From NCBI GenBank assembly GCA_963821525.1, contig CAWGED010000010.1, positions 136,425-200,424 of the forward strand: a stretch of DNA of 64,000 bases, read 5' to 3'. Every line of letters starts with the position of its first letter. Position 1 is the first letter of the stretch. A program made the position numbers and the translations under genes. Below, piece by piece: positions 14,149 through 63,299 of the stretch. The notes beneath the pieces are model-generated. The model was given only the letters and a program-made list of their open reading frames with translations, was not told the DNA's origin and made no database searches. The DNA is from an uncultured Gemmatimonadales bacterium (GTDB lineage Bacteria > Gemmatimonadota > Gemmatimonadetes > Gemmatimonadales > GWC2-71-9).

Positions 14149-14284
14149 ATTTCAGATTGAAGATTTCAGATTGAAGATTGATGGTTTGAGAGTGATGGAT
14201 CGGGGATCAGCCGTCAGCCTCAAGCTGTTAGCTGTCAGCTGTTAGTCGCCGTTCAATCTGCGATCTGAAATCTGACAATCTTCC
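14149..14284. repeat. inverted heptamer-repeat element (GATTTCA/GATTGAA arms, inner AGCYGTY array)
   Basis: Left arm 14149-14180; right arm TTCAATCTGCGATCTGAAATCTGACAATCTTC; inner CAGCCGTCAGC...AGCTGTTAGCTGTCAGCTGTTAG. Confidence 0.9.
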
Positions 14285-15985
14285 ATGACTCCTCCCTACC
14301 GGCCCCACCTCCGCCCTGAACGCCGCCACCCCGGCACGAATCGTCGGGAATATGCGCTCCGGTCCGATCTTGTCGGCCACGCCTGTAAGCTTCAGCATCG
14401 CCTCGAACCGACCCCTGGGCTTGGCAATGGCGAAGACAATTCCCTGCTCTTCCAGCTCGGCCCGAAGCTCCTCCAGCGTTTCTCCGCCGGTAATGTCGAG
14501 GGCGGGGGTGGATTCGGCACTGAACAGAAACCACCGAGGCTTGGGATTGGCCTGGCTTAACACGGTCCGGACCCGCTCCTTGAAATGATCGGCATTGAAG
14601 AACACAATCGAGGACTCGAAGCGAAACAACAGAAGGCCGGGAATCGGAGTGCCGCCATCCTCACCAATCTGCCCGTAGATTCCCGACTGCTCGTCGACTT
14701 CACCCAGAACGGCGTCGCGCGGTCTGGAGGCGAGCGCAATGAGCCGGAGTAGGGTCAAGGCCACGGCGATCAACACCCCGTGCAGCACGCCGACGGTCAT
14801 GACGCCCAGCATCGCCACGATCGACAGCCAGAACTCGGCGGGACTCACCCGCAGATACCAGCGGAGAGAGGCTATGTCGAAGAGTCCGATCGCCGAGGAG
14901 ATCAGGATCGCGGCGAGCGCAGCCTTGGGCAGCAGGGCGAGGGGCCCGGTCAGCAACAACAGCACCAGCGCCATCGCCATGGCCGCGACAACCGAAGTAA
15001 GCTGCGTCTTGCCGCCCGAGGTATCGGCCACCGCAGTCCGCGAATCCGCTCCGCTCACCACGAATCCCCGGCTCAACCCGGAGGCAAGGTCAGAGAAGCC
15101 GAGCGCGATCATGTCCTGGTTCGCGTCGATCGGGTAGTTGTTCTTGTTGGCGAACCCTCTCGCCGTGGTCATCATGCTGCAGAAACTCACCAGCACGATG
15201 CCCGCGGCACTCTCGACCAGAGGCAGGACCTCGCCGAGCTTGAGCCTGGGCAACGTGGGCATCGGGAACCCGGCGGGCACCTGACCAACCACCGCGACAC
15301 CCTTGGCCTCGAGGCCCATCGCGTACACCAGCACAATGCCGAATACCACTCCGATCAGCGGCCCGGGAAGCTGGGGCCAGAAGTGCTTGAAGATGCGCAG
15401 GAGCACGAAGAGACCGAGTCCAACGGCGATCGTGAGGTGATGAGTGTCTCCCAGACGGGAAAAGGCTTCCACAATCGTGCGGAAGAACCCGCCTTTGGGA
15501 ACCTGCACTCCCATCAAAGTTCCCAGCTGCCCCGCGATGATACTGAGGGCAATCCCGTTGAGATAACCCGTCAGGATCGGCCGCGACAAGAAGTCCGCGA
15601 TGACCCCCAGTCCAGCCAAACCTCCGGCGATACAGAGCAGGCCGGTAACGAACGTCAGGGTGACTGCCACATCCACGTAACGGGAGGGGTCGCTTGCAAC
15701 CAGCGGACCGACCGTCGCAGCAACGATGGCGCAGGCGGCCGCATCGGGATTCACCACCAGTTGTCGCGAAGTGCCAAACAGCGCGTAGGCCACGGCCGGG
15801 AGAATCGCAGAGTAGATACCCGCGACGGCGGGAAATCCGGCAAGCTCAGCGTAGGCGATGCCGATCGGAAGCGCTACGGCGGCGAGCGAGATGCCTGCGA
15901 GCAAATCGCTCTGGAGCCACTCGCGACGGTAGGTGCGGGCGACCCGGAGTCCGGGCATCCAGCGTTCGAGGGTTGGGGAGGGCAA
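14228..15985 (-). CDS. SulP family anion transporter with STAS domain
   Basis: DLLAGISLAAVALPIGIAYAELAG, YALFGTSRQL, SGADSRTAV, STAS FFNA; TTG start; stop lies inside the repeat element. Confidence 0.92.
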   Translation of the reverse strand: MPSPTLERWMPGLRVARTYRREWLQSDLLAGISLAAVALPIGIAYAELAGFPAVAGIYSAILPAVAYALFGTSRQLVVNPDAAACAIVAATVGPLVASDPSRYVDVAVTLTFVTGLLCIAGGLAGLGVIADFLSRPILTGYLNGIALSIIAGQLGTLMGVQVPKGGFFRTIVEAFSRLGDTHHLTIAVGLGLFVLLRIFKHFWPQLPGPLIGVVFGIVLVYAMGLEAKGVAVVGQVPAGFPMPTLPRLKLGEVLPLVESAAGIVLVSFCSMMTTARGFANKNNYPIDANQDMIALGFSDLASGLSRGFVVSGADSRTAVADTSGGKTQLTSVVAAMAMALVLLLLTGPLALLPKAALAAILISSAIGLFDIASLRWYLRVSPAEFWLSIVAMLGVMTVGVLHGVLIAVALTLLRLIALASRPRDAVLGEVDEQSGIYGQIGEDGGTPIPGLLLFRFESSIVFFNADHFKERVRTVLSQANPKPRWFLFSAESTPALDITGGETLEELRAELEEQGIVFAIAKPRGRFEAMLKLTGVADKIGPERIFPTIRAGVAAFRAEVGPVGRSHGRLSDFRSQIERRLTADS

Positions 15986-15990
15986 TGTGG

Positions 15991-16140
15991 ATTTCAGATT
16001 GAAGATTTCAGATTGAAGATCGGGGGTGGAAGATGAATCAGGGTCAGCGGTTAGCCGTTAGCGGTTAGTCTAATAGCTAATAGCCAATGGCTAATAGCTG
16101 GTGCGGTCCAATCTGCAATCCGAAATCTTCAATGTGCAAT
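15991..16140. repeat. nested inverted heptamer-repeat element
   Basis: Outer GATTTCA/GATTGAA arm 15991-16020 with complementary AATC arm 16109-16140; inner AGCGGTT/AGCCGTT array facing CTAATAG array. Confidence 0.9.
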
Positions 16141-16143
16141 GAC

Positions 16144-18117
16144 CTAGCACCCATGAGCCGGACGAGGCATCGCTTTAAGAAGGAGCGATTGGAAGGCAGG
16201 ATTCTTCGCCACTGGATCCAGCAATGGGTCGCAGCGAAGGTGGAGCTGAAAGTGCAGGTCTGCTCGCGGCTGGTAATCGGTAAGGAGTCGTAACGCTTTC
16301 CTGGTATCGCCGAGACCGAGGTAGCTCTCGGCGAGGTAGGTGACCGTGTGGATCTTGAGCGGTTGGTAGGATTTCGAGAGTGAATCGGCCCGCGCCAGCA
16401 GCTCGCGCGCCTTTGCCGCCTGTCCCGCCCGGTCCACCGGCAGCGCACTTCCCGCCATGGCATTCACGACCTCGACACCGCTGCTCAACCGGACCGCCGC
16501 ATCGAACGCCGCTACCGCCTTCCCGATATTCCCGCGGGAGAGCTCGGTCTGGGCGATGGAGGTGCGTCCCAGGTAGTAGCCGGGATCCACCCTCACCGCG
16601 CTGTCCCCGTAGACCGCCGCGCTGTCGTACTGGCGGCGCCAGTAGAAGGCAATTCCAAGGAAGGCGAGGCACTGGGTATTGGTCGGACTCAGGTCGAGGC
16701 AGCGATGCCACGCCGCGATGCCGCCGCTCGGGTCTCCGGTTTCCGTCAGGTACAGGCCGAGGTAGTGCCAGCTGTCCGGCTGGGTCGAGTCGAGGGCGAT
16801 AGCGTGCCGGATGGAGCGGAGCGCGGGACCGTCGTCGGTGGGGTCGATCCGCTCGCTCAGGGTGGCCCGGACACGCCAGGCCGCCGCGCTGTTGGAATCG
16901 AGAGCCAGGGCGCGGTCTACCGCCCTGACCGCGGCATCGATGATGCTATCGGACGGAACTCCCGGGATGACGAATCCTCGCACATCGGCCCGGACATAGG
17001 TCTGCGCCAGTGCAGTCCACGCATCTCCATAGGACGAATCCCTGGCCAACACCGCACTGAAGATCTGCGCCGCCTCGGCGCTTCCTGTCTGGGTCCGCCG
17101 CTCGAAGGCCTGAATCCCACGACTGTAAAGCGCGACCAGCTCCGGGTCTCGCGCTTGACCCCTCGCCGATGCTCTCCGAAGAAACGGATAAACTCCAATC
17201 AGAAGCAGGACCAATAGTCCAAGCACGACCAGCCTTCTACGCGACGAAGGCTTCGCCTGGACTGAGGGAACGCTGGCGGCCGTTGTGTCACGCAGGGCCG
17301 CGCTGAATGCGGCGAGGTCGGCGAAACGATCCGCCGGCGCGCGCTCCAGAGCCTTTAGCACCGCGCGCTCGACTGAAAATGGCACGCCGGGTCGGACCGG
17401 ATGAATGGCCCGGGCCGTCTCCGTCAATCGGCGAGCCACAATGGCCTGTGCGGTTCGGCCTCCGAAGGGAGGTTCGCCTACCAGCATCTCGTACAGCACG
17501 GTTGCGAGGCTATACTGATCGCTTCGGGCGTCCATCTTGTCGCCGCTGGCCTGCTCCGGACTCATGTAGGCCGGCGTCCCAATCGAGAGGCCCGTACTGG
17601 TCAGCCGTTCGGCATCGGTCTCCGCCACCGCTTTGGCGATGCCAAAGTCAACCACGTAGACCGAGCCGGCCGAGAGCAGCACGTTCTCCGGCTTGATATC
17701 CCGATGGACGATGCCGTGCCGGTGGGCCGCCTGGAGCGCTTGCGATATGAGGTCCGTGATGCGGAGGGCATCGTCGAGAGGAAGCTGCGGCTCTCTCATC
17801 AGCCTGGCCCGGAGCGATTCACCCTCGAGATAGGGCATGGCGTACCACGGCACCTCAGTTCCGTCGCCGCGGCGGATCACCCCGGAATCAAGCATCGGGA
17901 CGATGTTGGGATGTTGCAGCTGAGCTGTTACTCGAATTTCACGAAGGAACCGGTCCCCGCCGACCACCCCGGCCAGCTCCGCATGGAGCAGCTTGATGGC
18001 GACCAGGCGGTCATGCTGCCCATCTCGGGCGAGCCAGACCGTGCCCATCCCGCCTCGACCTAGCTTGCGCAGCAGCGCATAGCGGTCCGCGATGCTGCCG
18101 ACCACCGGCTCGGGCAT
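16144..18117 (-). CDS. Hanks-type Ser/Thr protein kinase with TM helix and TPR region
   Basis: GRGGMGTV, VAIK, HRDIKPEN, DFG, YMSPEQ; TM LVVLGLLVLLLIGV; GGAG before ATG 18117. Confidence 0.92.
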   Translation of the reverse strand: MPEPVVGSIADRYALLRKLGRGGMGTVWLARDGQHDRLVAIKLLHAELAGVVGGDRFLREIRVTAQLQHPNIVPMLDSGVIRRGDGTEVPWYAMPYLEGESLRARLMREPQLPLDDALRITDLISQALQAAHRHGIVHRDIKPENVLLSAGSVYVVDFGIAKAVAETDAERLTSTGLSIGTPAYMSPEQASGDKMDARSDQYSLATVLYEMLVGEPPFGGRTAQAIVARRLTETARAIHPVRPGVPFSVERAVLKALERAPADRFADLAAFSAALRDTTAASVPSVQAKPSSRRRLVVLGLLVLLLIGVYPFLRRASARGQARDPELVALYSRGIQAFERRTQTGSAEAAQIFSAVLARDSSYGDAWTALAQTYVRADVRGFVIPGVPSDSIIDAAVRAVDRALALDSNSAAAWRVRATLSERIDPTDDGPALRSIRHAIALDSTQPDSWHYLGLYLTETGDPSGGIAAWHRCLDLSPTNTQCLAFLGIAFYWRRQYDSAAVYGDSAVRVDPGYYLGRTSIAQTELSRGNIGKAVAAFDAAVRLSSGVEVVNAMAGSALPVDRAGQAAKARELLARADSLSKSYQPLKIHTVTYLAESYLGLGDTRKALRLLTDYQPRADLHFQLHLRCDPLLDPVAKNPAFQSLLLKAMPRPAHGC

Positions 18118-18162
18118 GACCAGCTCCACGTTGGGGGTAAGGCGACGGAATATACGCTCGAC

Positions 18163-18549
18163 ATGACCCTCCGCATCGTCCAACTCGGCAGCCCCCGGCA
18201 ACGCGGTGAGGGGCTTCGCATCGGCACCGTGCGCCGCCCGCCCCGTGGCGTGCCCAAGAGCCGCTACAGCTCGGATGACTGGTACGACGTCTGGCTTCCC
18301 GAGCTGGCGCCGAGCGCGGCGGCGGTGAAACGCGCCCTGGCTGCCGAGACGCCGGCCGAGTGGAAGGCGTTCGTGAAGCGCTATCGGAGGGAGATGAGCC
18401 AACCCGACAAGGTGCGGCTCCTCAAGCTGCTGGCCGCCTTATCACAGGACGCGAACTTGTCAGTGGGCTGTTACTGCGAGGATGAGTCGCGCTGCCATCG
18501 GTCGGTGCTGCGGGAGCTGTTGCAGGAGAATGGGGCCAGGCTGGGGTGA
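18163..18549 (+). CDS. DUF488 (YeaO-like) protein
   Basis: RIGTVRRPPRGV, WLPELAPS, CYCEDESRCHRSVL. Confidence 0.88.
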   Translation: MTLRIVQLGSPRQRGEGLRIGTVRRPPRGVPKSRYSSDDWYDVWLPELAPSAAAVKRALAAETPAEWKAFVKRYRREMSQPDKVRLLKLLAALSQDANLSVGCYCEDESRCHRSVLRELLQENGARLG

Positions 18550-18550
18550 A

Positions 18551-18632
18551 ACACAAAGAGCACGAAGTTCCCTCCGTGCCCTCTGTGTCTCAATCTTCAA
18601 TCTGAAATCTTCAAATCCTTCAATTTCCTTCA
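18551..18632. repeat. 9-mer hairpin plus AATC heptamer arm between convergent genes
   Basis: ACACAAAGAGCACGAAG / CTCCGTGCCCTCTGTGT, then CAATCTTCAATCTGAAATCTTCAAATCCTTCAATTTCCTTCA. Confidence 0.85.
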
Positions 18633-19041
18633 CCCTTCCCGAATCAGACTCCCGCTCGCCACATCGTAAATCCGAACGTGCACAACAATGCCGGGCCGGG
18701 TCTGATCGACCACCTTCACATGGACAACCTTCTTGTCCTCGGTCGGACGGTAGACGATCCAACTGCCGGCCGGAGCAGAACGCTCGATGTTGGCGCAGCT
18801 GCGCGCCTTCGCCTGATGCCCGGGCGGCTCACCCGGCATCCAGACCCGACATTGCCCGGGCGGAGGCAAGTGCCCTGGAGGAATGCCGAGAGTCGCAGCC
18901 GTGCTCTTTCCCTGTTTCTGGGCAGGGGCAGGGGCAGGCGCGGGGGCCGGAGCCGGCTTGGACTTGGTGGTGTGAGATCGAACTGCACGCCATGGCAGCG
19001 AGCAGTACTAGAGCGGGGGCGAGCACGCGGGTTGAGCGCAT
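18630..19041 (-). CDS. hypothetical lipoprotein with PA-rich linker (frameshift near 18970)
   Basis: GGAGG RBS, lipobox AMAC; restored frame reads PAPAPAPAPAQ...IPPGHLPPPGQCRVW.PG.PPGHQ. Confidence 0.7.
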
Positions 19042-19292
19042 GGATCCTCCAGGCAAGGGACGCGGTCTGCCCTTGGGCGGCAGAAAGCATGCCCCAGCCC
19101 TAAGTTATTATCCCACACTGATCTATCGAATAATCCCGCAGAGCAGGAGACTATGCGAGGTGTCGTGTGCATTGTGGCTTGGCAGGCTGCGGGACCGTCT
19201 GATTAGAACCCATCGGAGGGTAAATTATTTGGCTGTCCGCTCGTTCAATGCCGTCTACAGCCTGGCGGCCGACGGTTAAGGCCTGTGGGTTC

Positions 19293-19612
19293 AACACGAA
19301 GAACACAAAGATCACAAAGGGCTTCGAGTACGCTCGATGTCACCTTGAGGCCCAATTGGCCTCCGTAACACTCAGCCCAATCTGACACCTGAAATCTGAG
19401 ATCTGAAATCCCAGCAAGCCACAAAGGACACAAAGGTTTCCCCTCGTGTCCTTCGTGATGAAACAGCCGCCAGCCACCAGTACCTCCACCAACACACATC
19501 TAACTGCTAACAGCTAAGAGCTAACAGCTACAACCCAAAGCTGATGCCCAACGGCTGATTGTCCCGTCTCTGCTGTTTACAATCGGCAATCTTCAATCGG
19601 CAATCTTCAATT
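19293..19612. repeat. stack of five short tandem-repeat arrays
   Basis: CACAAAG 9-mers 19293-19319; AATCTGA 19379-19410; 9-mer hairpin 19420-19457; CTAACAG 19500-19530; AATCGGC/AATCTTC 19580-19612. Confidence 0.85.
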
Positions 19613-19614
19613 CC

Positions 19615-20133
19615 CTACGCCACCTTCTCTACCGACAGCTTCGACTGCTTCGCCGCCTTGAGCGTCGCGCGAATCTTCTCGAGGTGATGGTAGCTGTGCC
19701 GGACCGCGTGATCCTCCAGGATGAACTGGGTAGTGAGCGGTGCATCGGCGTTGAGCGAAACCGCCGCCGCCTTGTCCAGCTGCTCGTCAGTGAGCTGACG
19801 GATCGCCTCGGCAGCCGCGGCACTTTGGATCTCCAGGAAATGCAGAGCCTCTTCCTTGGTGACCTTGTCGAAGTCCTTGGCGTGGCGGGCATTCACCTGA
19901 TGCACATCGTCCCAGGTGACGCCGGCGATCGGGTCGCCTTTGGCGAGGGTCTGGGCGATCTGGATCTCCAGCGGATACATGTTGCCGACGTGATGCACCA
20001 CCACGCCGATCTTGCGGCCGTCCTTGGGAATCGGCGTCTGCCACTCGGCCTCCGTGAGGGTGCGGGCGAGAGCGGCAAGGGCGCGGGCTCCTTCTTCAAG
20101 GCGAACGGCCAGCGCTTCGGTACGTTTACTCAT
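19615..20133 (-). CDS. DinB/MDMPI-like four-helix protein
   Basis: LTEAEWQ...VVVHHV...HSYHHLEKI histidine pattern; GGAGG RBS. Confidence 0.75.
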   Translation of the reverse strand: MSKRTEALAVRLEEGARALAALARTLTEAEWQTPIPKDGRKIGVVVHHVGNMYPLEIQIAQTLAKGDPIAGVTWDDVHQVNARHAKDFDKVTKEEALHFLEIQSAAAAEAIRQLTDEQLDKAAAVSLNADAPLTTQFILEDHAVRHSYHHLEKIRATLKAAKQSKLSVEKVA

Positions 20134-20175
20134 GGTCCTACCTCCAAGTCGAGTGCGTGGTTGACAGCAATGTGA

Positions 20176-21036
20176 TCAGGCTACGGTGGCCTGAACGTCG
20201 AGATATTCTCCGACCACCGTCGTCCTGCCGTTGGTGGCCACGTTGTGTTCCGTGAAGTGCCGCGTGAGGTTCTCGCGAAGCCGGCTGGCGCCTTCGGGAT
20301 CGGCGGCGCGCAGGGTCGCGACCGTGGGCCCGTAGCAGTTGGCGAACAGCTCGGTCACCGCGGCGGGCGGGAACGGGAAGCTGAGCTCCAGCGTCCGCTT
20401 GCTGCAGATCACCGAGCTCACCTTGTCGCCGAACCGGGCCCGGACCATCGCCTCCTTGCCCCACTCCAGCGAGCTCGGCACGCCCTGCGGGGGTGGCACG
20501 ACCGCGGTATGCAAGCGGAGCATCTGCCCCACGAATCCCTCGAAGGTCCAGTTCGCCATTGCGACCCGGCCTCCTGGGCGAGTCACCCGAATCAGCTCCG
20601 CGGCGGCGCGCTCCGGACGGAAGGCGAACATCGCCCCGAACATCGTGACCGTGGTGTCGAACTGGCCCTGGAGATAGGGCAGCGACTCGGCATCGCCCAC
20701 TTCGAAAGCGATGGCGACACCCGCGGCACGAGCCTCGAGCTGCGCCTCGGCGATCAGGTTGGGCGCGATATCAATCCCGCTGACTCGCGCTCCGGCCTTG
20801 GCGGCGGGGATGGCGAGGTTGCCGGTGCCACAGGCGACATCGAGGACGGTCTCGCCCGGACGAATCCCCAGCCTTGCGATGAACTCCTGAGCGCCGGGCT
20901 CGAAGCTCCGCGCGATCGGAAGGAAATCGCCCGAGGTCCAGACCGAACGGGCGCGGGCGGTGAGAGGATCTTCCGACCAGGCCCGGACCTCGTTGCTGGT
21001 ACGTGGACTGCGGGATGAAACACCTTCTGCCGACAT
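20176..21036 (-). CDS. class I SAM-dependent methyltransferase
   Basis: VLDVACGTGN, GDAESLPY, FGAMFA, RPGG. Confidence 0.9.
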   Translation of the reverse strand: MSAEGVSSRSPRTSNEVRAWSEDPLTARARSVWTSGDFLPIARSFEPGAQEFIARLGIRPGETVLDVACGTGNLAIPAAKAGARVSGIDIAPNLIAEAQLEARAAGVAIAFEVGDAESLPYLQGQFDTTVTMFGAMFAFRPERAAAELIRVTRPGGRVAMANWTFEGFVGQMLRLHTAVVPPPQGVPSSLEWGKEAMVRARFGDKVSSVICSKRTLELSFPFPPAAVTELFANCYGPTVATLRAADPEGASRLRENLTRHFTEHNVATNGRTTVVGEYLDVQATVA

Positions 21037-21193
21037 GCCACTCCTCCATCAATGGGTTCCGGCGCGACCTCGTGTCGCGCAGCGGGATCAAAGTGCTATG
21101 GAGGGGTGTTGCGGGAAATGACTGGAAGTCCCGATTTGCTGCTCAGGAGTGCTGACGGCGGTGTCAGACGGCGGACTACACGTGGACCCTCGA

Positions 21194-22151
21194 CTAAGAA
21201 ACCCCCGATCTTCTCGCCTCTCGCCACGCGCCCGGGGCCACGCCCGTCGCCTTCTTGAACGCACGGCTGAAGGCGGCCTCGGAGTCATATCCGACCTGCG
21301 CCGCGATGGCGGCCACCTTGGCGCCGCTCTGAGAGAGGAGATTGGCGGCAACCTGCATGCGCCATTGGGCGAGATACTGCATCGGCGGCTGGCCAACCAG
21401 TTCGGTGAAGCGCTTCGCCACATTGGTGCGGGAAGAGGCTGCCTTGCGTGCCAACTCGTCGAGGGTCCAGGGATGAGCCGGCTGCGCGTGCAACAGGCCC
21501 AGGACACGGCCCACCACATCGTCGCGGAGACCCGCGAGCCACCCAGCCTGCCCTGACGGCTGCTCGCCGAGGTAGCGGCGCAGCACCTCGATGAACATCA
21601 ACTCGGCAAGCCTGGTGAGCACGCTGTCGGCGCCGGCCCTCCGGAGCTGGGATTCTTCGGTGACCTGTCGCGTGAAGCTGCTGAGCCCAGGCGCCCGACA
21701 TCCCGCGCATGTGCATGAGGCGTGGGAGACCGGCCAGCAGCGGATTGAAAGGGCGCCGGTCGCAGCCCAGAAACCCGCAAACAAATGCCGCGGCACGAGG
21801 GCCCCCGTTGCCGAGCATCACGGGCTCGAGATAGCGCGCGGTGCCGACGCTATGGACGTTCGGGCCGCTCTGCAGCCCGCGCGCGCTGGACATCATGTGG
21901 GCGTCCCCATGAGGAAAGACGATGATGTCGCCCTGGTTGAGCTCCACCTGGTCCTCCCCTACCAGTCCGCCGTAACAGCGTCCTTCCGTGACGACGTGGT
22001 AGGAGATCAGATGCTCCGCCGTCGGCATGACCCGGGGCGTCAGTTCCTTGGCCGCCACCGTCTCGACGCTCCACGGCGCCACGGCCTCGACCGAATAGAA
22101 GAACGCGCCGTCCAGACGCACGACTCGGAGCAGGTCGGAGAGGGGATCCAT
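21194..22151 (-). CDS. AraC family regulator with cupin N-terminal domain (frameshift at CCC 21686-21688)
   Basis: MDPLSDLLRVVRL...FPHGDAH; C-terminal WTLDELA...PPMQYLAQWRM...VGYDSEAAFSRAFKK in the adjacent frame. Confidence 0.88.
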
Positions 22152-22167
22152 GGAGCGGGAATGTATC

Positions 22168-22278
22168 GGGGAAAGGGGTAGTGGGGAGTAGGGAGTGGGG
22201 AGTAGGGGGAGGGAAGTGAGGGCAAGTACTCATCTGAATAGTTCTCCCCACCACCCACTCCCCACTCCCTACTCCCTA
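22168..22278. repeat. inverted GGGAGTR heptamer element
   Basis: 22184-22203 is the exact reverse complement of 22257-22276 (20 bp). Confidence 0.9.
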
Positions 22279-22689
22279 ACCATCCACGTCATCCAATACC
22301 GGCTTAATATCCACCACGGGCGTCCCGTCAATCGCCTCGATCGGCCCGATCCGCAGTCGCGTCCCGGAAATCTCCCGCACCGTTACTCGATGAAGCCCCA
22401 GCGGATTGGGCCGGTCGGGAGACCGGGTCGCGAAGACTCCGGCGATCGGAATCTCAGGATCACCCCGCGGGTGCACCTGGAGCACCTCACGATCACCCCG
22501 GTGTAACCAGGTGATGATGATGATGTCGTCCCCTCGGGCGACGCCGCGAAGCGCCGGCTCAAAGGCTGGATCAACATGGAGCCAGGCGTCGGGCGCACCC
22601 TCGTTCCCCTGTCTCGGCGCTTCCTCCTTCGAGTGGAGCGCCGACCGAATGTGGCCGATGAGTCGGAGGTGATCAGGAATGTCTTCCAT
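22276..22689 (-). CDS. trmO: tRNA (t6A37)-N6-methyltransferase TrmO/TsaA family
   Basis: APRQG, GVFATRSPDRPNPLGL, DGTPVVDIKP. Confidence 0.85.
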   Translation of the reverse strand: MEDIPDHLRLIGHIRSALHSKEEAPRQGNEGAPDAWLHVDPAFEPALRGVARGDDIIIITWLHRGDREVLQVHPRGDPEIPIAGVFATRSPDRPNPLGLHRVTVREISGTRLRIGPIEAIDGTPVVDIKPVLDDVDG

Positions 22690-22695
22690 GGGGCA

Positions 22696-22797
22696 ATTGC
22701 AAATTGAAAATTGGTAATTGGTAATTGGTAATTTCAGATTGAAGATTTCAGATTGAAGATTGACACTGCAAAAGCTAACAGCTAATAGCTAACAGCT
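22696..22797. repeat. heptamer arrays (AATTGGT, GATTTCA/GATTGAA, GCTAAYA) between divergent genes
   Basis: Contains the third exact copy of ATTTCAGATTGAAGATTTCAGATTGAAGAT at 22731-22760. Confidence 0.9.
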
Positions 22798-22813
22798 TAT
22801 AGGCTTGCGGCCT

Positions 22814-23214
22814 ATGGCATACGGCTCTCCTCCAACCGCCACACCCCGCCATCGCGTACTCGACCCTTCAAGCCACCTACTACATCCTCACAGGGCTCTG
22901 GCCCCTGGTTCACTTTTCCAGTTTCGAGCTGGTAACCGGCCCCAAGACCGATGACTGGCTGGTGCGGATGGTGGCGCTACTGGTCGTGTTGATCGGAGTT
23001 ACACTGGCCGTGGCGGTCATGCGCAATGCCGTTTGACCTGGAGATCACAGTCCTCTCTGCCGGGGCCACCATCGCCTTCTCGGCCATCGACACCTGGTAC
23101 GCCTTCAGCGGTCGCATCTCTCCGATCTATCTGGCAGACGCAGCCTTGGAGGTAGTTCTGCTGGCCGGCATGGCGCTGACCCGCCGGCCGTTCCGGGACG
23201 CCGAACGAGCCTGA
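22814..23214 (+). CDS. conserved hypothetical membrane protein (two frameshifts)
   Basis: LQATYYILTGLWPLVHFSSFELVTGPKTDDWLVRMV...AIDTWYAFSGRISPIYLADA after joining frames. Confidence 0.65.
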
Positions 23215-23377
23215 CGGGATGCCCTGTCTGCAACTCATAATTCGGGAGGCCCCTCAAGACGCCCAAGTCACTCGCGGAATGTTGCTACTGCGGTACCTTA
23301 TCCCCGCTGGCGATCCGCCCAGGGCTGAACCGTGACCCTGCGGGAACATCGAGTCCCTTAGTCCTCAGGAGGGTACC

Positions 23378-23950
23378 ATGACCGGAGCGCGCATGCTGTT
23401 GACCGACGTCCTTTCTCGAGGCTGGTGGCACCTGCTGCTTCGCGGACTCGCCGCCATCGCCTTCGCCATACTTACCTGGTTCCGTCCGGGCATCTCCCTC
23501 GCCGCGCTGGTGCTGCTCTTCGGCGCGTACGCGCTGGTTGACGGAGTGCTCGCCGTGTGGACCGCGATCGCCGGCCGGGGGACCTACGATGGTTGGTGGG
23601 TACTCCTGCTCATCGGGCTGATCGGGGTGGCGGTAGGGATCATGACCTTCATGACCCCGGGGATCACCGCCCTCGCCCTTCTCTACTACATCGCCTTCTG
23701 GGCGATTTTCCGCGGGCTTCTCGAGATCTCGACGGCGATCCGGCTGCGGAAGGAGATCGAGGGTGAATGGCTGCTCATCCTGGGCGGTGTCGCGTCGGTG
23801 GTATTCGGCGTGCTCCTCCTCGCCCGTCCCGGCGCCGGCGCCCTTGCGGTGCTCACCCTGATTGCGATCTACGCCTTGATCATCGGAATTATCCTGGTCA
23901 TTCTCGCATTCAAGGTAAAAGGGATGGCTGGCCGGTTGGCGGGGGCCTGA
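23378..23950 (+). CDS. HdeD/DUF308 family membrane protein
   Basis: WW.LLLRGLAAIAF...LFGAYALVDG; six TM helices; AGGAGG RBS. Confidence 0.88.
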   Translation: MTGARMLLTDVLSRGWWHLLLRGLAAIAFAILTWFRPGISLAALVLLFGAYALVDGVLAVWTAIAGRGTYDGWWVLLLIGLIGVAVGIMTFMTPGITALALLYYIAFWAIFRGLLEISTAIRLRKEIEGEWLLILGGVASVVFGVLLLARPGAGALAVLTLIAIYALIIGIILVILAFKVKGMAGRLAGA

Positions 23951-23958
23951 AGCGAGAG

Positions 23959-24059
23959 AATTGCCGATTGACGATTGCTGATTGACGATTGAACTGCGGT
24001 GGACGCCTCGACTATGGCCCGCAGTTCAATCAGCAATCAGCAATCAACAATCGTCGATC
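23959..24059. repeat. inverted GATTGNN heptamer element between convergent genes
   Basis: GATTGAC/GATTGCT array facing AGCAATC array; perfect 13-bp inner stem 23987-23999/24019-24031. Confidence 0.9.
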
Positions 24060-24498
24060 ACGCGTAAGCCGGCACCCCAAGTCCGCCACCGCCATCCGGC
24101 GGAGCCCCGAAGTGCTCGAGGCCGCACCCCAATTCCTCGCACACGTATCTCATCTCTTTGATCCACGAATCGCACAAGGCGGGCGTGACCACCGTGGAGC
24201 CCGTGATCGCCGCCACGTTCCATTTGCCGTCTTTTGTGAGGACATCCACCTCACTCCAACCAAGCCCCTGATCCAGCAGGTACTCGCGCACTTTATTGGC
24301 GACTGACTGATCGGGCGCCCAATAGGCGGTTGTGAGTACGCAGCCCGGAAAGTTCTCCGCGCCGCAGGGGCCGCACAGGGTGCCGACGAGTCGGCGTACC
24401 TCGGTCCAATGGCGTTCGTTCTCGCGAATCTGACCCATCTGGCGATAGTGCCGCGTCGCGGCCAGCAGACACACGACCAGGACCCCGACCACGGTCAA
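24058..24498 (-). CDS. hypothetical protein with N-terminal TM helix
   Basis: 146-aa ORF filling the gap; start uncertain; no recognised family. Confidence 0.5.
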   Translation of the reverse strand: MTVVGVLVVCLLAATRHYRQMGQIRENERHWTEVRRLVGTLCGPCGAENFPGCVLTTAYWAPDQSVANKVREYLLDQGLGWSEVDVLTKDGKWNVAAITGSTVVTPALCDSWIKEMRYVCEELGCGLEHFGAPPDGGGGLGVPAYA

Positions 24499-24730
24499 GG
24501 AGATGAGTAGCGAGATATTCGGTTCCGGAATGGCCAGCCGCAGTGGCGCAGATCGCCGTCGCCGGACCCGCGAAACGGGGCGGAAGAGGAAGATCCCCCC
24601 GCCCCGTTTGTGATCGGCGGAGATGGCCCTGCCGACTGGACGTGATTTGCGCAGACAGTGCCACCTTATGGAACACGGAAAGGGCAGTCAAGTTGCCCAT
24701 GAGGGCAACACGAGTGATTTTCCGACCTCC

Positions 24731-25258
24731 ATGAGCCCGCAAATTCACCGGATCGAACGGCTGACACCCCCGTTTTCGGGCGCCGATCTTCGCGGGCTTG
24801 CCGAGCTACTGGTAGACGCGGTGTCCTCCGGCGCCGCGGTGAGCTTTCTCCCGCCGCTCACCGTTGAGCAGGCGGAGGCCTGGTGGCGGAAGACCGCCGA
24901 CCCCAAGACCGTTGTTCTTGTGGCCCGGGATGCCATGGGCATCGTCGGGACGGTACAGCTCCACCCATCCTGGGCACCCAACCAGCCCCACCGGGGCGAC
25001 ATTGCCAAGCTCGTGGTCCATCGCCGGAGCCGGCGCACCGGGCTGGGATCCCAGCTGATGCAAGCCATCGAAGGCGAAGCCCGCCGGGCTGGATTCACTC
25101 TTCTCACCCTCGATACCAAGCAAGGCGATGGCGCGGAGCAGCTCTACCGCCGAGGCGGATGGATCGAGGTTGGTGTGATTCCGCGGTATGCACTAAATCC
25201 AGATGGCAGCATGCACGCGACGGTTGTGTTTTATAAGGACTTGTACAGCAGTCGATAG
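24731..25258 (+). CDS. GNAT family N-acetyltransferase
   Basis: GAAVSFLPPL, PNQPHRGDIAKLVVHRRSRRTGLG, LLTLDT. Confidence 0.9.
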   Translation: MSPQIHRIERLTPPFSGADLRGLAELLVDAVSSGAAVSFLPPLTVEQAEAWWRKTADPKTVVLVARDAMGIVGTVQLHPSWAPNQPHRGDIAKLVVHRRSRRTGLGSQLMQAIEGEARRAGFTLLTLDTKQGDGAEQLYRRGGWIEVGVIPRYALNPDGSMHATVVFYKDLYSSR

Positions 25259-25361
25259 TCGATGGTCAGTGGTCTTGAGTCGTGGGTCTTGAGTCTGCCA
25301 GACCCAAGACTCATGACCCAAGACTTCCGACCACCGACCATCGACCATCGACCGCCAACCG
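25251..25361. repeat. nested inverted GTCNNNN heptamer element
   Basis: GTCGATA GTCGATG GTCAGTG GTCTTGA GTCGTGG GTCTTGA GTCT-gcc-AGAC CCAAGAC TCATGAC CCAAGAC ... CATCGAC CATCGAC. Confidence 0.9.
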
Positions 25362-25362
25362 C

Positions 25363-26205
25363 ATGCGCACACCCGTTCTCACCACCCTCGCCCTCATCGC
25401 CTTTGCCGCCAATTCCCTGCTCTGCCGTCTGGCGCTCAGGAGCCAGGCCATCGATCCCGCGACCTTTTCCGCCGTTCGGATCGTCTCCGGCGCCCTGATA
25501 CTCGGCTTGCTCGTCCGTTGGCCGAGCGACGCACCTCCAGCGTCGGGCGGCTCGAGCTGGACGTCGGCTGGTCTCCTTTTCCTTTATGCTGCGCCGTTTT
25601 CCTTCGCCTACCTGCATCTGAGCGCGGGGACCGGCGCGCTCCTGCTCTTTGCCTCTGTCCAAGTGACGATGGTGCTGGCCGCGCTGGCGCGGGGGGAGCG
25701 TCCCCGTCCCATCCAATGGGTCGGGCTGACCGTGGCTATAGCAGGATTGGTCTACCTCGTCCTTCCCGGCCTCACGGCCCCGGATCCGTTCAGCGCCTCC
25801 CTCATGTTTCTCGCAGGCGTTGCCTGGGGCCTCTACTCCCTGCGCGGGCGAAGCACCACCGCGCCACTCGCCCAGACCGCCGGCAACTTCGCTCGCGCCG
25901 TGCCGATGGTGCTCGTTCTCTGTCTAGTCGCCTGGCCGGTGCCGCCGGTCAAAGCGAGCGGAGTTCTTTGGGCCGTGCTCTCGGGCGCCATCGCCTCGGG
26001 TATCGGTTATGCTCTCTGGTATGCCGCACTTCGTCACCTCACAGCCATGACGGCGGCGATCGTACAACTCGCCGTGCCGATTCTCGCCGGAGCGGGAGGA
26101 GTACTCCTGTTGGGAGAAGTGCTCACCATTCGGCTGGCCTTTGCCGCGGTGCTGGTTCTGGGAGGCATTGGCATGGCCATCCTTGGCCGCGCGCCCGCAC
26201 GCTGA
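25363..26205 (+). CDS. DMT/EamA family transporter
   Basis: ALIAFAANSLLCRLAL; ten TM helices; SGIGYALWY. Confidence 0.9.
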   Translation: MRTPVLTTLALIAFAANSLLCRLALRSQAIDPATFSAVRIVSGALILGLLVRWPSDAPPASGGSSWTSAGLLFLYAAPFSFAYLHLSAGTGALLLFASVQVTMVLAALARGERPRPIQWVGLTVAIAGLVYLVLPGLTAPDPFSASLMFLAGVAWGLYSLRGRSTTAPLAQTAGNFARAVPMVLVLCLVAWPVPPVKASGVLWAVLSGAIASGIGYALWYAALRHLTAMTAAIVQLAVPILAGAGGVLLLGEVLTIRLAFAAVLVLGGIGMAILGRAPAR

Positions 26206-26273
26206 CGCCTACCGGCGGCCGAACTACCTTCCGGCAAAGGAGTGAGAGTAGTTTTTTCGAGAGGTGACCTACC

Positions 26274-26642: not shown

Positions 26643-26767
26643 GGGATTGAGGGATGTGAGGGATGTATGGATTGAGGATGTCGGGGATGCTGATGCATCT
26701 CGATCGATAACGCCTCGGGAGCAGAACACATCCCTCAATCCCTCAATCCAAACATCCCTCAATCCTC
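26637..26767. repeat. inverted GAGGGATT octamer element
   Basis: 26658-26677 matches the reverse complement of 26741-26760 at 19/20. Confidence 0.9.
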
Positions 26768-27274: not shown

Positions 27275-27333
27275 AGATTGCAAACTGGGTGTGCCCCGGC
27301 CCTCAAATCTTCAATCTGAAATCTTCAATCTTC
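27259..27333. repeat. inverted GATTTCA/GATTGAA element between convergent genes
   Basis: GAAGATTTCAGATTGAAGATT / AATCTTCAATCTGAAATCTTC perfect complement. Confidence 0.92.
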
Positions 27334-27345
27334 CATCGCCCGCGC

Positions 27346-49316: not shown

Positions 49317-49335
49317 CGGCGGTCGGGGGATTCAA

Positions 49336-51075: not shown

Positions 51076-51095
51076 TTTCGCGGCGGGAGGAGCCG

Positions 51096-51689
51096 ATGCA
51101 AAAGGCGGGCAATGACGACGCCGTCATGGGACGGCGGTCGTTCCTGGTGCAGGCCGGAGTAGCGATGTTCGCCATGGCATGTCGGGCGGTCGAGAAGCGG
51201 GTCCCGATTGCCGCCGCGGCGTCGCTAGGCGAGGACCCGACCGTGACCATCGTCGAGTTCAGCAACGACGGCAAGCGACTCCGGACCGTGTCGGTGCCTC
51301 GCGTCGTAAAGTCGGAGGAGGAGTGGAAGAAGCAGCTCTCGCCGGCCTCCTTCGAGGTAACCCGTCATGCCGGGACGGAGACGGCTTTCACCGGTGCCCT
51401 GCTCGAGGAGCATGACAAAGGCGTCTTCCGTTGCATCTGTTGCGATACCGCCTTGTACGACTCCAGCACCAAGTTCGAATCCGGCACCGGGTGGCCCAGC
51501 TTCTGGGCTCCGATCGCAAAGGAGAACATCGTCGAATCCAGCGACGACAGTCTCGGGATGGTCCGCACCGAGGTTTCCTGCCGTCGCTGCGACGCTCACC
51601 TGGGACACGTGTTCGATGACGGGCCGAAACCGACCGGACTGCGCTATTGCATGAACTCGGTCGCGTTACGATTCGCCAAGTCCTCCTAG
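51096..51689 (+). CDS. msrB: peptide-methionine (R)-S-oxide reductase with Tat signal
   Basis: RRSFL; CICC, SGTGWPSF, CRRCDAHLGHVFDDGP, RYCMNS. Confidence 0.95.
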   Translation: MQKAGNDDAVMGRRSFLVQAGVAMFAMACRAVEKRVPIAAAASLGEDPTVTIVEFSNDGKRLRTVSVPRVVKSEEEWKKQLSPASFEVTRHAGTETAFTGALLEEHDKGVFRCICCDTALYDSSTKFESGTGWPSFWAPIAKENIVESSDDSLGMVRTEVSCRRCDAHLGHVFDDGPKPTGLRYCMNSVALRFAKSS

Positions 51690-51698
51690 AGCTGTCGG

Positions 51699-52199
51699 TC
51701 AGTCAAGCCGCTTTCCGGTCTCCAGCAGCGTCTTGAGGTCGCTGAGGACCCAGGCCCAGCCTCCGCCGGCACCCTGCTTCTCCAGGCTGCCGCCAACGAT
51801 GAGGGCGAGCTTGGGAGCCCCTTCCAGTTCGTGAGTAACCGTCAGCTTGGTTACTCCGCCCTGCGTCGGTTCGAGTTCCCAGGTGAGGCGGGTAAATCCC
51901 TCTGCTGCCATCTCCGGGTCCATCAGCATTCGCCAGCTCAGCACCAGCTTGCGTGGCGGGTCGGCCTCGATGACTTCGCCATCCACCGCGACCTCGGGTG
52001 AGCCCCCTGCGCGCATCTCCGCACTCGCGAGGTGGCGGTACTTCCCGTGGGCTCGCAGGTCGAATTCGGCTCGCCCGCCATAGCCGTACCGCGCAGTCCA
52101 CTCGGGCCGGGTGATTGCATCCCAGATCGCCTGGGGGGTCGCCTTGATGTACACCCGGTACACCTGGGTGGTGACCCTGGTCTCCGTCATCGCGGTCAT
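51699..52199 (-). CDS. SRPBCC family protein
   Basis: YRVYIKATPQAIWDAIT...GEVIEADPPRKL...GGWAWVLSDLKTLLETG. Confidence 0.9.
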   Translation of the reverse strand: MTAMTETRVTTQVYRVYIKATPQAIWDAITRPEWTARYGYGGRAEFDLRAHGKYRHLASAEMRAGGSPEVAVDGEVIEADPPRKLVLSWRMLMDPEMAAEGFTRLTWELEPTQGGVTKLTVTHELEGAPKLALIVGGSLEKQGAGGGWAWVLSDLKTLLETGKRLD

Positions 52200-52516
52200 G
52201 CCGTGTCCTCCAACTCATGCTTGAGGTCTGCGAGCGCCGAGATCCGGCGCTCGGTGAACTTGTCGATCCACCGGTCGTGGATCAGCCGGATCGGAACCGG
52301 GTTGAGGAAGTGCAGCTTTTCCCGGCCCGAGCGGCGGGTGACCACGAGTCCGGCTTCTTCAAGCACACGCAGGTGCTTCATCACCCCGAAGCGGGTCATC
52401 TCCAGTACCGACTCGAGCTCCGTCAGCGTGCGGCCGTCACGCTTGTAGAGCCGGTCGAGGAGAAATCGCCGGGTTGGATCGGCCAGCGCCTTGAACACCA
52501 GGTCATCGTCAGTCAC
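52196..52516 (-). CDS. ArsR/SmtB family transcriptional regulator
   Basis: VFKALADPTRRFLLD...MKHLRVLEEAGLV; GTG start 52516 preferred. Confidence 0.9.
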   Translation of the reverse strand: MTDDDLVFKALADPTRRFLLDRLYKRDGRTLTELESVLEMTRFGVMKHLRVLEEAGLVVTRRSGREKLHFLNPVPIRLIHDRWIDKFTERRISALADLKHELEDTA

Positions 52517-52522
52517 GGACGG

Positions 52523-52552
52523 ATAATATGTGACCAAATAGTCACCTGTCAA
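52523..52552 (-). promoter_or_regulatory. sigma70-type promoter with GTGAC-N6-GTCAC operator (leaderless arsR)
   Basis: TTGACA-18-TATTAT, 6 nt, GTG; palindrome 52530-52545. Confidence 0.65.
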
Positions 52553-52599
52553 GTGGGCGACTACGTGAAGCTATGCATGCCACCCAGAGTCTCAACTGG

Positions 52600-52791
52600 A
52601 AACGCAGAGGCGCAGAGGGCACAAAGAGCGTCGTCGCGCTCGCCCCGCGCTCAGTGAAATGCAGATCAGATTTTTTGCGGTTACTGAAAGGAGAGAACGT
52701 GGTACAACCTAAAGCCTGACTTGAACTCCTCTGCGTTCTCCGCGCCTCTGCGTTTGTAATTCCCGTTCCCCGTTCCCTGTTCCCGTTCCCG
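52600..52791. repeat. inverted CGCAGAGG 8/9-mer element plus TTCCCG arm
   Basis: AAACGCAGAGGCGCAGAG (52600-) complements CTCCGCGCCTCTGCGTTT (-52755); then TTCCCGTTCCCCGTTCCCTGTTCCCG. Confidence 0.85.
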
Positions 52792-52803
52792 CCTCTCAAT
52801 GAT

Positions 52804-53439
52804 TCACGCCTGTGCCGGCTCCGCGATCAACTGGTCACTCAGCTCCGCGATAGTGGAGAACATGTCGCGCGCAGCGGCAACCATCCGGTCAGCCTGGGAC
52901 GCGTCGAATCCCGCCGCGTTCATCCGCTCCCGGTAGGCTCCCCAGACCCGACGCTGTTCCTCGCCGTAAGGGTCGAGATAGGTCGTCGCGGGGATCTTTA
53001 ATGCAGGCGTAAGAACCCGGGCGATGAACCGGTTGCCGTTCATGCTCCCTTCAAGCACGTAGTTGTACCCGAGGAGGCTGAGCGGGTCCTGCTCAGCGGT
53101 GTTCCGGATCGCCGACAATCCGAGTTCGGTCGCCGGGAGTGGATCTAGCTCATCAGGATCGCCAGCCAGCGCGATCAGGTCGCCGCGGAGATTTGCGACA
53201 TGACGGCCTTCGTCTCGAACTACATCCGCCAGGGCGGGCGAAGAAACCCGGCGCGCCATGATCCCGCTCCAGAGCGCCGAGTGAAGGAGGAGCATCTGGC
53301 CGAGCCAGCTGCGATAGGTGTCCACCGGGAGTCGCCCGCTGACCATCTCCTTCTGGAGCCTCCGGCGTTCCGCGTCGCGGTGCTGTTCGGCAGTGGCCTC
53401 CTTCAGGAGATCCATGATTCCGCTGCTCTGATAGGTCAT
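52804..53439 (-). CDS. biliverdin-producing heme oxygenase family protein
   Basis: LKEATAEQHRDAE proximal His; YVLEGSMNGNRFIA distal motif. Confidence 0.88.
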   Translation of the reverse strand: MTYQSSGIMDLLKEATAEQHRDAERRRLQKEMVSGRLPVDTYRSWLGQMLLLHSALWSGIMARRVSSPALADVVRDEGRHVANLRGDLIALAGDPDELDPLPATELGLSAIRNTAEQDPLSLLGYNYVLEGSMNGNRFIARVLTPALKIPATTYLDPYGEEQRRVWGAYRERMNAAGFDASQADRMVAAARDMFSTIAELSDQLIAEPAQA

Positions 53440-61532: not shown

Positions 61533-61566
61533 GACGTGAGAGGTTAGACGTAAGACGTAGGAGACT
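61533..61566. repeat. single GACGTRR heptamer arm
   Basis: GACGTGA GAGGTTA GACGTAA GACGTAG. Confidence 0.6.
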
Positions 61567-62334: not shown

Positions 62335-62718
62335 ATGCCACGACGACTCTCCGCCGTGGCCTTTCTTGCGCTGAATGTCTGGGGCATCACTCACCTCGAG
62401 GCCCAGGCGAGGGCTCCCAGCCTGCACCGTTGGCAGGCGGAGCTGCCGGCACAGCAACATCGTTCCTCGTTCGCCGACAAACTTGAATACGCCGTTCCGG
62501 AAGACTCGATTTCAAAGACACATTCGCACACCTTCACTGGACTTCTGATCGGGAGCGCCGTTGGCCTGGCCTCAACGGGCCTCTTTCTAGCGGCGTTCTG
62601 TGGAGATCCCGATACCGAGTGCGGAGCAGATGAATACGGCCGTGCCCTGGTGATCATTGCGGTCCCCGCCGCCGCAGCTGGAGCGCTGATCGGTTCCCTG
62701 ATTCACACCAGGGAATGA
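62335..62718 (+). CDS. hypothetical exported/membrane protein
   Basis: Signal peptide plus glycine-zipper-like TM pair; start uncertain. Confidence 0.55.
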   Translation: MPRRLSAVAFLALNVWGITHLEAQARAPSLHRWQAELPAQQHRSSFADKLEYAVPEDSISKTHSHTFTGLLIGSAVGLASTGLFLAAFCGDPDTECGADEYGRALVIIAVPAAAAGALIGSLIHTRE

Positions 62719-62847
62719 ATCCGGCGCTGGAGGGATAAGGCCCCCAGGGGAACGCTTGGTGGTGCCGCGGTGAGGCGCGGAGGATCGATGGTTGCGGTCA
62801 GGAGTCGAACCGATACCTTCACCCTCTCACTCATCAGGTAGCGGCTT

Positions 62848-63168
62848 ATGGCAACATATCTCTGGCAGGCGTCGTATTCCGTGGACGGCACCAAGGGTCT
62901 GCTCAAGGAGGGCGGCTCGAAGCGCCGCGCGGCAGTGCAGCAGGCGGTGGAGAAGGCGGGCGGAAAGTTGCTCGCTTTCTACTTCGCGTTCGGCGAATCC
63001 GACGTCGTCGGCATCGCGGAATTCCCCGACAATGCGACAGCCGCGGCGGTCAGCATGGCGGTGAACGCGGCCGGTGCCGCGAGTCTCCGTACGACGCCGC
63101 TGGTTTCACCGGAAGAAATGGACGCTGCTGCGAAGAAGACGGTCTCGTACCGGCCGCCGGGGGCGTGA
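62848..63168 (+). CDS. GYD domain protein
   Basis: ASYS.DG.KGLLKEGGSKRR...GGKL.AFYFAFGESD...EFPD. Confidence 0.88.
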   Translation: MATYLWQASYSVDGTKGLLKEGGSKRRAAVQQAVEKAGGKLLAFYFAFGESDVVGIAEFPDNATAAAVSMAVNAAGAASLRTTPLVSPEEMDAAAKKTVSYRPPGA

Positions 63169-63170
63169 GG

Positions 63171-63299
63171 TGTCGGCTGTCAGCCGTCAGCCGTCAGCCG
63201 TCAGCCGTCGGTTCGTGAGCTATTAGCTATTAGCTATTAGCTCAGCCGCTAATAGCAGCGGCTACGGCTGACGGCACTGACGGCTGACGGCCGACAGCT
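63171..63299. repeat. nested inverted heptamer element (outer CGTCAGC, inner AGCTATT)
   Basis: (YGTCRGC)5, (AGCTATT)3, GCTAATAGC, then GCTGACG array. Confidence 0.92.

Follow-up and report, generated by a model that had tools for sequence, protein, structure and literature searches.

Repeat arrays at gene junctions

The window analysed here is a 64,000-nucleotide stretch (G000:C10:136425-200424) from the genome of an uncultured Gemmatimonadales bacterium, G000, whose assembly measures 4.33 Mb and is 81% complete. The 87 window open reading frames (ORFs) compared with NCBIfam are for the most part small accessory genes, and 21 gene junctions of the window, between positions 14149 and 63299, hold short tandem arrays of 7- to 9-nucleotide units, often as a G-richer arm (G arm) followed by an inverted, C-richer arm (C arm). 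Cyanobacterial STRR heptamers and REP palindromes are partial precedents. We propose that these arrays are gene-less versions of the arms of small gene cassettes, which carry a four-helix-bundle (4HB) gene of family TIGR02436 or, for one 9-mer family, a GxxExxY gene, and that each protein is likely to recognise its own repeat and probably to drive the rewriting of hairpin-bearing junctions; we hold this reading with slightly better than even confidence. Neither TIGR02436 nor GxxExxY has a match among the window ORFs.

Genes were called with our own hexamer model and arrays were detected with Tandem Repeats Finder (TRF), an inverted-repeat scan and our own period scan. All unit families named in the first-pass annotation, a model's reading of the bare sequence, were recovered. 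Its statement that most elements have both arms stands for 14 of the 21 junctions, at which both arms come from one family, and not for the remaining 7, which are single-arm or mixed (19293-19611, 22695-22797, 40256-40306, 41060-41108, 45027-45061, 48466-48580 and 61533-61562). Folding of seven paired elements gave a long hairpin in every case, with z between -4.6 and -12.8 relative to 200 shuffles. The arrays do sit at junctions, but they are not strictly between genes, as arms often overlap the final codons of the upstream gene and provide its stop codon (25258, 26642 and 27274), and several elements are nested. The elements are given below, with four congeners for comparison (G001, which is 98% complete, G002, G003 and G004); loci outside the window are given as contig and position in G000.

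14149-14281: G arm of GATT heptamers, an arm of the AGC family and, within the 3' end of a sulP-like ORF, a C arm of the GATT family
15990-16141: nested; outer GATT pair, inner AGCGGTT/GCTAATA pair; nesting identical in G003
18552-18632: CACARAG 9-mer pair (GxxExxY type), then a lone GATT-family C arm
19293-19611: single-arm cluster of CACAAAG 9-mers, AATCTGA, ACAGCTA and CAATCGG
22168-22278: inverted pair of GGGAGTR heptamers; the junction in G001 contains 1.3 kb of other DNA
22695-22797: G arms AATTGGT and GATT; C arm AGCTAAC
23960-24052: ATTGCCG/ATTGACG pair, family of the 4HB gene C19:290308; three other arm types in the three congeners compared
25250-25362: nested GTC element, outer GTCGATG, inner GTCTTGA/GTCGTGG; provides the upstream gene's stop codon
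26637-26765: GATTGAGG octamer pair, family of the 4HB gene C9:139; provides the upstream stop codon
27258-27337: GATTTCA/GATTGAA pair at a convergent junction, family of the 4HB gene C19:291953
34368-34407: short pair GGGTCAT/GACTCAC
35400-35503: CACAGAG remnant and GATT pair with a rare unit mirrored
36999-37066: GATT pair with a shortened G arm
38686-38854: GTGAACG pair around an SRM/CGTC-type palindrome (about 38732-38763), then a lone CTGACCC C arm
40256-40306: TGTCGCC remnant and lone CCTGACA C arm (family of the 4HB gene C18:37933)
41060-41108: lone C arms ACTCCCT and CCGACCA
45027-45061: lone TCCGCC-core 9-mer C arm (family of the 4HB gene C19:448324); site without the arm in G001
48466-48580: compound C arms of TCCGCC-core 8/9-mers, immediately 3' of a stop codon
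52600-52791: CGCAGAGG pair (52600-52755) with a 102-nt loop, then a lone CCCGTTC C arm
61533-61562: lone GACGTRA G arm, 3' of a stop codon
63171-63299: nested; outer GCCGTCA pair (family of the 4HB gene C5:276451), inner GCTATTA pair (family of the 4HB gene C11:8734)

The sulP-like ORF runs through the heptamer arm at 14228-14281, so that its product probably ends in a C-terminal tail translated from the repeat.

Abundance, position and polarity in the genome

Arrays of these periods are in excess in G000. A fifth-order Markov simulation leads to an expectation of about 23 period-7, 26 period-8 and 14 period-9 arrays, against 930, 194 and 210 found, whereas counts at the control periods 5, 10 and 11 stay close to the simulation (27, 36 and 25 versus 23, 20 and 23). 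The impression that arrays are rare inside genes proved correct for the heptamers, with only 43 of 930 midpoints (4.6%) in confident gene interiors that cover 69% of the genome; period-9 arrays are far less clean, 90 of 210 lying inside genes. For junctions with gaps of 60-400 nt, those that hold arrays number 92 of 169 where the genes converge, 307 of 1069 where they are co-directional and 39 of 238 where they diverge. At co-directional junctions the G arm begins a median of 3-4 nt past the upstream stop codon and the pair ends a median of 27 nt before the next start. The G-richer arm had been described as usually the 5' arm, and among 283 inverted pairs no more than 200 nt apart 237 are G-first and 42 C-first (86 versus 74 at 600-6000 nt), rising to 135 versus 2 for phase-fixed family patterns; G-richness fails as the rule for the GCCGTCA family, in which the polarity is that of the core orientation. 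Partner arms are closer to each other than random arms of their family (3.7 versus 4.9 mismatches over three units), and the inner three units are exact mirrors in just 1 of 130 elements.

Repeats at gene ends could also arise passively, if slippage, quasi-palindrome correction and gene conversion grow tolerated or terminator hairpins and the 4HB cassettes are inert cargo. The enrichment at convergent junctions and stop codons is consistent with such a process, as are the A-tract on the outside of GTGAGA arms (39 of 71), the mirroring of rare units and the existence of families with no detected cassette. It leaves unexplained, however, the restriction to periods 7-9 and the fixed polarity, as well as the coexistence of many families, mostly with their own protein clade, the purifying selection on these proteins and the wholesale family swaps described below. 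Moreover, G-T pairs do not exceed A-C pairs on the transcribed strand (66 versus 61, and 163 versus 169), and strand-specific RNA structure was rejected on the same grounds. A passive origin is unlikely in our judgement, though by no means negligible.

Cassettes that carry the same repeats

The 4HB genes are the probable link between the arrays and a protein. G000 has 13 matches to TIGR02436, 12 of them above the cut-off of the hidden Markov model (HMM), and each of the 13 is enclosed by inverted arrays whose G arm is on the upstream side, in agreement with an association named in the first-pass annotation. The arrays around these genes mostly differ in family, with two AGC-core and two GATT-core heptamers among them, and most array families of the window are represented. 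The genes are antisense to their neighbours at all eight co-directional junctions, four further cassettes are at convergent junctions and one is at a contig end; three of the genes (C5:121651, C7:55979 and C19:448324) look broken. At C4:415158-415727, a GATTGAGG octamer pair with arms 485 nt apart encloses only a faint 4HB trace, and G004 has an intact cassette at this site. The nearest named homologues of one G000 4HB protein are from Gemmatimonadales.

The association named for GxxExxY genes also holds. G000 has four matches at three loci, all with 9-mer-type arms, and the CGCAGAGG pair at 52600-52755 matches the arms of the GxxExxY gene C5:948723; this 9-mer family belongs to GxxExxY and not to 4HB genes. 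Three-unit arms of the C5:948723 type number 31 in G000, one of them within a gene. Other small genes for which enclosure by paired arms had been suggested have repeats of a different kind: palindromes with 51, 30 and 19 copies border three of the four GIY-YIG genes that were checked, both DUF559 genes carry their own non-periodic hairpins, and so do the four Y1 transposase matches, one of which has heptamer arrays beyond its own hairpin. As each of these gene types has its own repeats, several protein-plus-repeat systems coexist in G000 and nest in one another.

The model of the 4HB protein (pLDDT 97) closely matches XCC0516 (2GSC; TM 0.97, Z 20.4), followed by BT_0352 (Z 16.1) and Avd of diversity-generating retroelements (DGRs; Z 14.6, root-mean-square deviation 2.0 over 110 residues), and the predicted fold and the HMM scores both place the partner genes in TIGR02436/PF05635. 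The expectation that the partner would be an enzyme finds no support here, as there is no nuclease among these matches. Invariant residues include E51, R55 and E74 (alignment numbering), and dN/dS is 0.07-0.33 in 18 of 18 orthologue pairs; the 4HB genes are under purifying selection.

The likeness to Avd (4DWL, 8UB7) raises a second possibility, in which the 4HB protein is a cofactor of a reverse transcriptase (RT) that extends the two break ends with the G strand, by telomerase-like synthesis or by twin priming on arm RNA. Avd is described as forming a pentamer, which binds a stem-loop of nucleic acid, in this case RNA, by way of flipped-out bases, and as activating its RT (10.1101/2023.10.23.563531). 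The polarity of the arms is that expected of end-addition and subsequent joining, and their variable unit order is also consistent with this possibility. The identity between the two proteins is nevertheless 10%, inner flanks are shared among elements no more than outer flanks, and PF00078 was found in 5 of 31 genomes, with none in G000 (81% complete) or in G001 (98% complete). Since G000 has no PF00078 match, RT-based synthesis of the arrays was rejected, and we consider it improbable.

The fold also recalls the intervening sequences (IVSs) of 23S rRNA. In the account of the Coxiella IVS, an S23p ORF lies between terminal inverted repeats and RNase III cuts the IVS in vitro (PMC4990558), and S23p shares both the protein family and the fold (2GSC, 2RLD) with the 4HB proteins. 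The hairpins could then be mRNA intervening sequences excised by RNase III. By contrast with the IVS as described there, the sites here are junctions of protein genes (12 of 13 cassettes, with one at a contig end) and not an rRNA helix, the arms are periodic and empty copies are abundant. None of 13 genomes, of which 8 have a completeness of 90% or more, has a TIGR02191 match, against 9 of 14 for the control, and the wobble pairs have no strand bias. RNase III processing was rejected because no RNase III was found in the 13 genomes, and it must be regarded as extremely improbable.

Cassettes and repeats across relatives

TIGR02436 occurs in 26 of 31 genomes, with 12 matches in each of the four congeners. 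We examined 101 4HB loci, the 13 of G000 and 88 of 133 outside it, and arrays lie on both sides of 82 of them, by a permissive threshold and with complementarity not checked at each locus; contig ends truncate 6 of the 19 that lack two-sided arrays. In a quick tree built from 97 proteins (104 columns, four short rows dropped), repeat core and period follow the protein clade: a 22-row clade (SH-aLRT 96) has period-8/9 arms in 20 of 22 rows against 6 of 75 other rows, and an 11-row clade holds the GATT/AATT families. The concordance demonstrates co-inheritance and not recognition, because related sequences are not independent and the arms are carried along with the genes.

The units of dispersed arrays are shared with the cassettes of the genus. 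Among 862 dispersed heptamer arrays, 614 have a consensus unit that occurs in cassette arms of this genus, compared with 118 that match arms of other genera and 62 that match shuffled units (unit sets of 436 for the genus and 404 for the others). The matches are fewer for longer periods, with 32 of 137 for period 8 and 7 of 111 for period 9. AGGGTGT triplets are rare, with 8 matches in 4 genomes, 7 of them in the genus whose cassettes carry AGGGTGT. Array density, estimated from 43-80 kb samples per genome (800 kb for the highest value; one region of G011 contained a cassette), is 1.3-10.5 per 100 kb in five genomes lacking 4HB genes and 2.5, 5.0, 8.8, 25, 27.5 and 34.8 in six genomes that have them. 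In G025, four of six 4HB genes examined (L014, L081-L085) have no detectable arms and the sample has few arrays; the link between 4HB genes and arrays may have been lost in this lineage. Overall, we regard a link between the arrays and the 4HB cassettes as very likely.

Change at junctions between species

Comparison of 875 kb of G003, with flanks 94% identical to G000, provided 648 orthologous junctions, of which 507 are array-free, 108 were scored as the same family, 22 as different and 11 as present in one genome only. The classifier is crude, as several junctions scored 'same' hold different families and a few scored 'different' are gene-call errors; it undercounts family swaps, of which there are at least 22, against 11 cases of presence or absence. 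Identity between the two genomes is 74% at array junctions (n=82) and 93% at others (n=198).

The same junction can be filled, empty, swapped, nested or inverted in different species, which supports the earlier proposal that the arrays are cis-sites or empty derivatives with their partner encoded elsewhere. Eight slots have a 4HB cassette in a congener and none in G000, where a different family takes the place of the cassette at three of them, related arms flank a nested palindrome at four and the last is nearly bare; at three additional slots different species carry different cassettes, and the cassette at C19:393311 has opposite orientations in G001 and G003. Within the window, 23950-24058 has four arm types across four genomes. 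The junction at 38686-38854 holds other families in G001 and G003 and one arm in G002, and that at 14149-14281 has, in congeners, the GATT G arm alone in the gap or other lengths. The composite arm of 25250-25362 is that of the 4HB gene C12:98038, and its inner part is missing in G001, G002 and G004. The element at 27258-27337 has no loop in G003 and is enclosed by a 9-mer pair in G004. Four metagenome contig sets covering 13500-28500 have fragments that break at the arrays, the joints probably deriving from other copies.

Such changes might reflect transposition of whole arm-loop-arm units, as in REPINs or MITEs, with a RAYT or other nuclease acting in trans and the loops then turning over fast. 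Nesting in older hairpins, which REPINs are reported to show (PMC3116915), the stereotyped GTGAGA arms, which have a leader that also occurs at the cassette, and the four Y1 matches in G000 are consistent with this. The loops are not: 128 of the 209 elements have loops of searchable length, and matches elsewhere were found for 27 of these 128 against 58 of 384 controls, with 17 of the 27 being nested SRM-like palindromes, so that loops are mostly unique and no general sharing is apparent. In addition, the Y1 genes are flanked by non-periodic hairpins, and at C19:164577 different arms surround a terminator-like loop that has kept its sequence. Transposition of whole units appears quite unlikely. 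The loops were also considered, and rejected, as cassette remnants, since four loops checked at 52552-52804, including the 102-nt loop, contain no GxxExxY remnant and loops in general are unshared.

A further possibility is that the arms are recombination sites for the capture and loss of accessory genes, in the manner of integron cassettes, which would agree with the accessory appearance of the window genes, with several congener gene indels that abut arrays and with an integron integrase elsewhere in G000. Gene gain or loss is indeed more frequent at array junctions in the raw counts (9 of 21 versus 138 of 700, p 0.02), but matching for gap length removes the enrichment (p 0.22 and 0.85), and G-first same-family pairs are not in excess beyond 600 nt. 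The genes also lie in both orientations, in contrast to an attC array, a comparison for which no search with an attC model was made. Gene capture was therefore rejected and is highly improbable, and the earlier suggestion of a system for general gene rearrangement is likewise unsupported.

Relation to known systems

Two known pairings of a small protein with its own flanking repeats are the closest precedents, and G000 itself has relatives of both. In accounts of RAYTs and their REPtron and TIRtron relatives, distinct slow-moving master genes each sit beside their own repeat family (PMC3116915, PMC3733652), and REPINs are described as intergenic inverted doublets that insert into existing elements, as the doublets found here also do. 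The differences are that the partner is a 4HB protein and not an HUH transposase, that the arms are tandem arrays, that the loops are unshared among copies and that families are replaced in place. In G000, the HUH Y1 genes are flanked by non-periodic hairpins rather than a cognate repeat, and copying of whole elements with their spacer is not seen, the conserved loop with changed arms being a case in point.

In the Ssn system, SsnA acts on NTS repeats flanking its own gene, a hairpin repeat of its own borders the gene on either side and has many gene-less extragenic copies, and protein-repeat pairs are suggested to co-evolve (PMC11893778). The repeats in that description are single short palindromes and the partner is a single-domain GIY-YIG nuclease of single-stranded DNA, whereas here there are periodic 7-9-mer arrays with unique loops and an all-helical 4HB protein with no known catalytic role. 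SRM-like palindromes do occur in G000, nested in loops and flanking the GIY-YIG genes mentioned above; the periodic arms flank 4HB and GxxExxY genes instead. The palindrome at 38732-38763 resembles the NTS/SRM motif of Ssn nucleases, and its core has 30 copies in the genome, one of which adjoins the GIY-YIG gene C5:845162. By analogy, the arrays would work like RAYT/REPIN and Ssn/SRM yet lack their defining features, as there is no HUH or GIY-YIG partner and no shared spacer.

Heptamers resembling those of the window have been reported as GGGAATC in Xanthomonas and GGGGA(C/T)T in Nostoc; they are intergenic, with 70 and 75 convergent inverted pairs in two Xanthomonas, and the G strand lies within 50 bp of stop codons (PMC4692102). 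The arrays of G000 share this position and pairing. The Xanthomonas and Nostoc heptamers form a single family per genome and are treated as G-quadruplexes, the parts of the report consulted naming no partner gene (PMC4692102), whereas many families coexist here, most of them without G tracts. Our literature search, with partial coverage that mostly left out subscription journals and supplements, found no paper that joins TIGR02436 or GxxExxY genes to periodic inverted or heptamer arrays.

Proposed mechanism and its weighing

The arrays are best read, by analogy, as a protein-plus-repeat system of RAYT/REPIN or Ssn/SRM type that would rebuild arms at existing hairpins. They are likely to be gene-less products of a selfish repeat system, one that the cassette proteins would sustain, because they share repeat words with cassettes and replace one another at the same junctions between species. 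We propose the following series of steps. A 4HB pentamer would bind its cognate repeat, single-stranded or as a hairpin, by analogy with Avd, which binds a stem-loop, and with SsnA, which acts on the repeat beside its own gene. A host enzyme, or a small nuclease acting in trans, could produce a break or strand invasion at a hairpin that is already present; repair would then copy one arm onto each end, the G strand pointing to the centre, with local or captured DNA as the loop. Template switching at a later stage would make the two arms partial mirrors of each other, and over repeated rounds the flanks might be worn back as far as the stop codon and the ribosome-binding site, where selection would halt the process. 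An active role of the 4HB proteins is moderately probable; arm-by-arm writing in particular is tentative, and we put it somewhat below an even chance.

Several observations weigh against the cassette-driven reading. Of 59 cases of a rare unit, 14 have its mirror image in the partner arm, where 3.4 would be expected, so partner arms are not fully independent, and since the arms are physically linked to the gene, concordance of protein tree and repeat is expected from co-inheritance alone. The cassettes of G000 itself account for only 308 of the 862 dispersed heptamer arrays. Within the genus, how common a family is does not track the presence of a detected cognate cassette: the biggest family of G000, AGTACCG (60 arrays), has no cassette in the 81%-complete assembly, and AGTTCCG triplets peak in G004 (29 matches), where no AGTTCCG cassette was found. 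The densities of G025 (8 4HB matches, 2.5 arrays per 100 kb) and G026 (4 matches, 5.0) overlap those of genomes without 4HB genes. Two fold searches found no nuclease fold above generic bundles, which leaves activity possible, and no nuclease fusion recurs among 56 longer 4HB homologues, whose additional parts are mostly unrelated host domains, a search that constitutes weak evidence. Finally, the comparisons revealed no case of one recent insertion whose breakpoints are clean.

If the link is functional, a non-transposase partner would be added to the pattern of RAYT and Ssn, together with a set of small proteins with differing repeat specificities, and the fast divergence of array junctions and the use of arms as the stop codons of neighbouring genes would be explained. 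The protein-repeat pairs that occur naturally in this genus are numerous and differ in core and period, so specificity is directly testable by swapping them. The results touch on two open questions, the excess of heptamer repeats in bacteria (PMC4692102) and the function of the S23p/TIGR02436 family (PMC4990558), as they are framed in these reports. A broader speculation, which we consider rather unlikely as a whole, is that 4HB/Avd-like pentamers are sequence-specific drivers of transposase-free selfish DNA, in which no unit moves, arms are written onto break ends at existing hairpins, many protein-repeat pairs compete for slots at gene ends and the unexplained heptamer excess of bacteria has its origin.

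Other features of the window and the genome

The first 150 kb of the contig (C10:1-150000, which includes window positions 1-14100) have no period-7 array scoring at least 10, against about 21 per 100 kb genome-wide, and are possibly a foreign or newly acquired region. Much of the window from 44000 to 53000 has a second copy on another contig of G003 (L110, G003:C4:11130-19889), by duplication or assembly redundancy. The integron integrase of G000 lies outside the window at C3:37950-38888 (TIGR02249, 449 bits, above the cut-off). The gene at 39916-40308 is longer in all four congeners and has internal deletions in G000, which makes it a likely pseudogene; that at 33227-34078 encodes an APH(6)-like phosphotransferase scoring under every curated cut-off. 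A Ser/Thr kinase gene is present at 28496-30727 and at many other loci, with numerous tandem-clustered paralogues across the genus.

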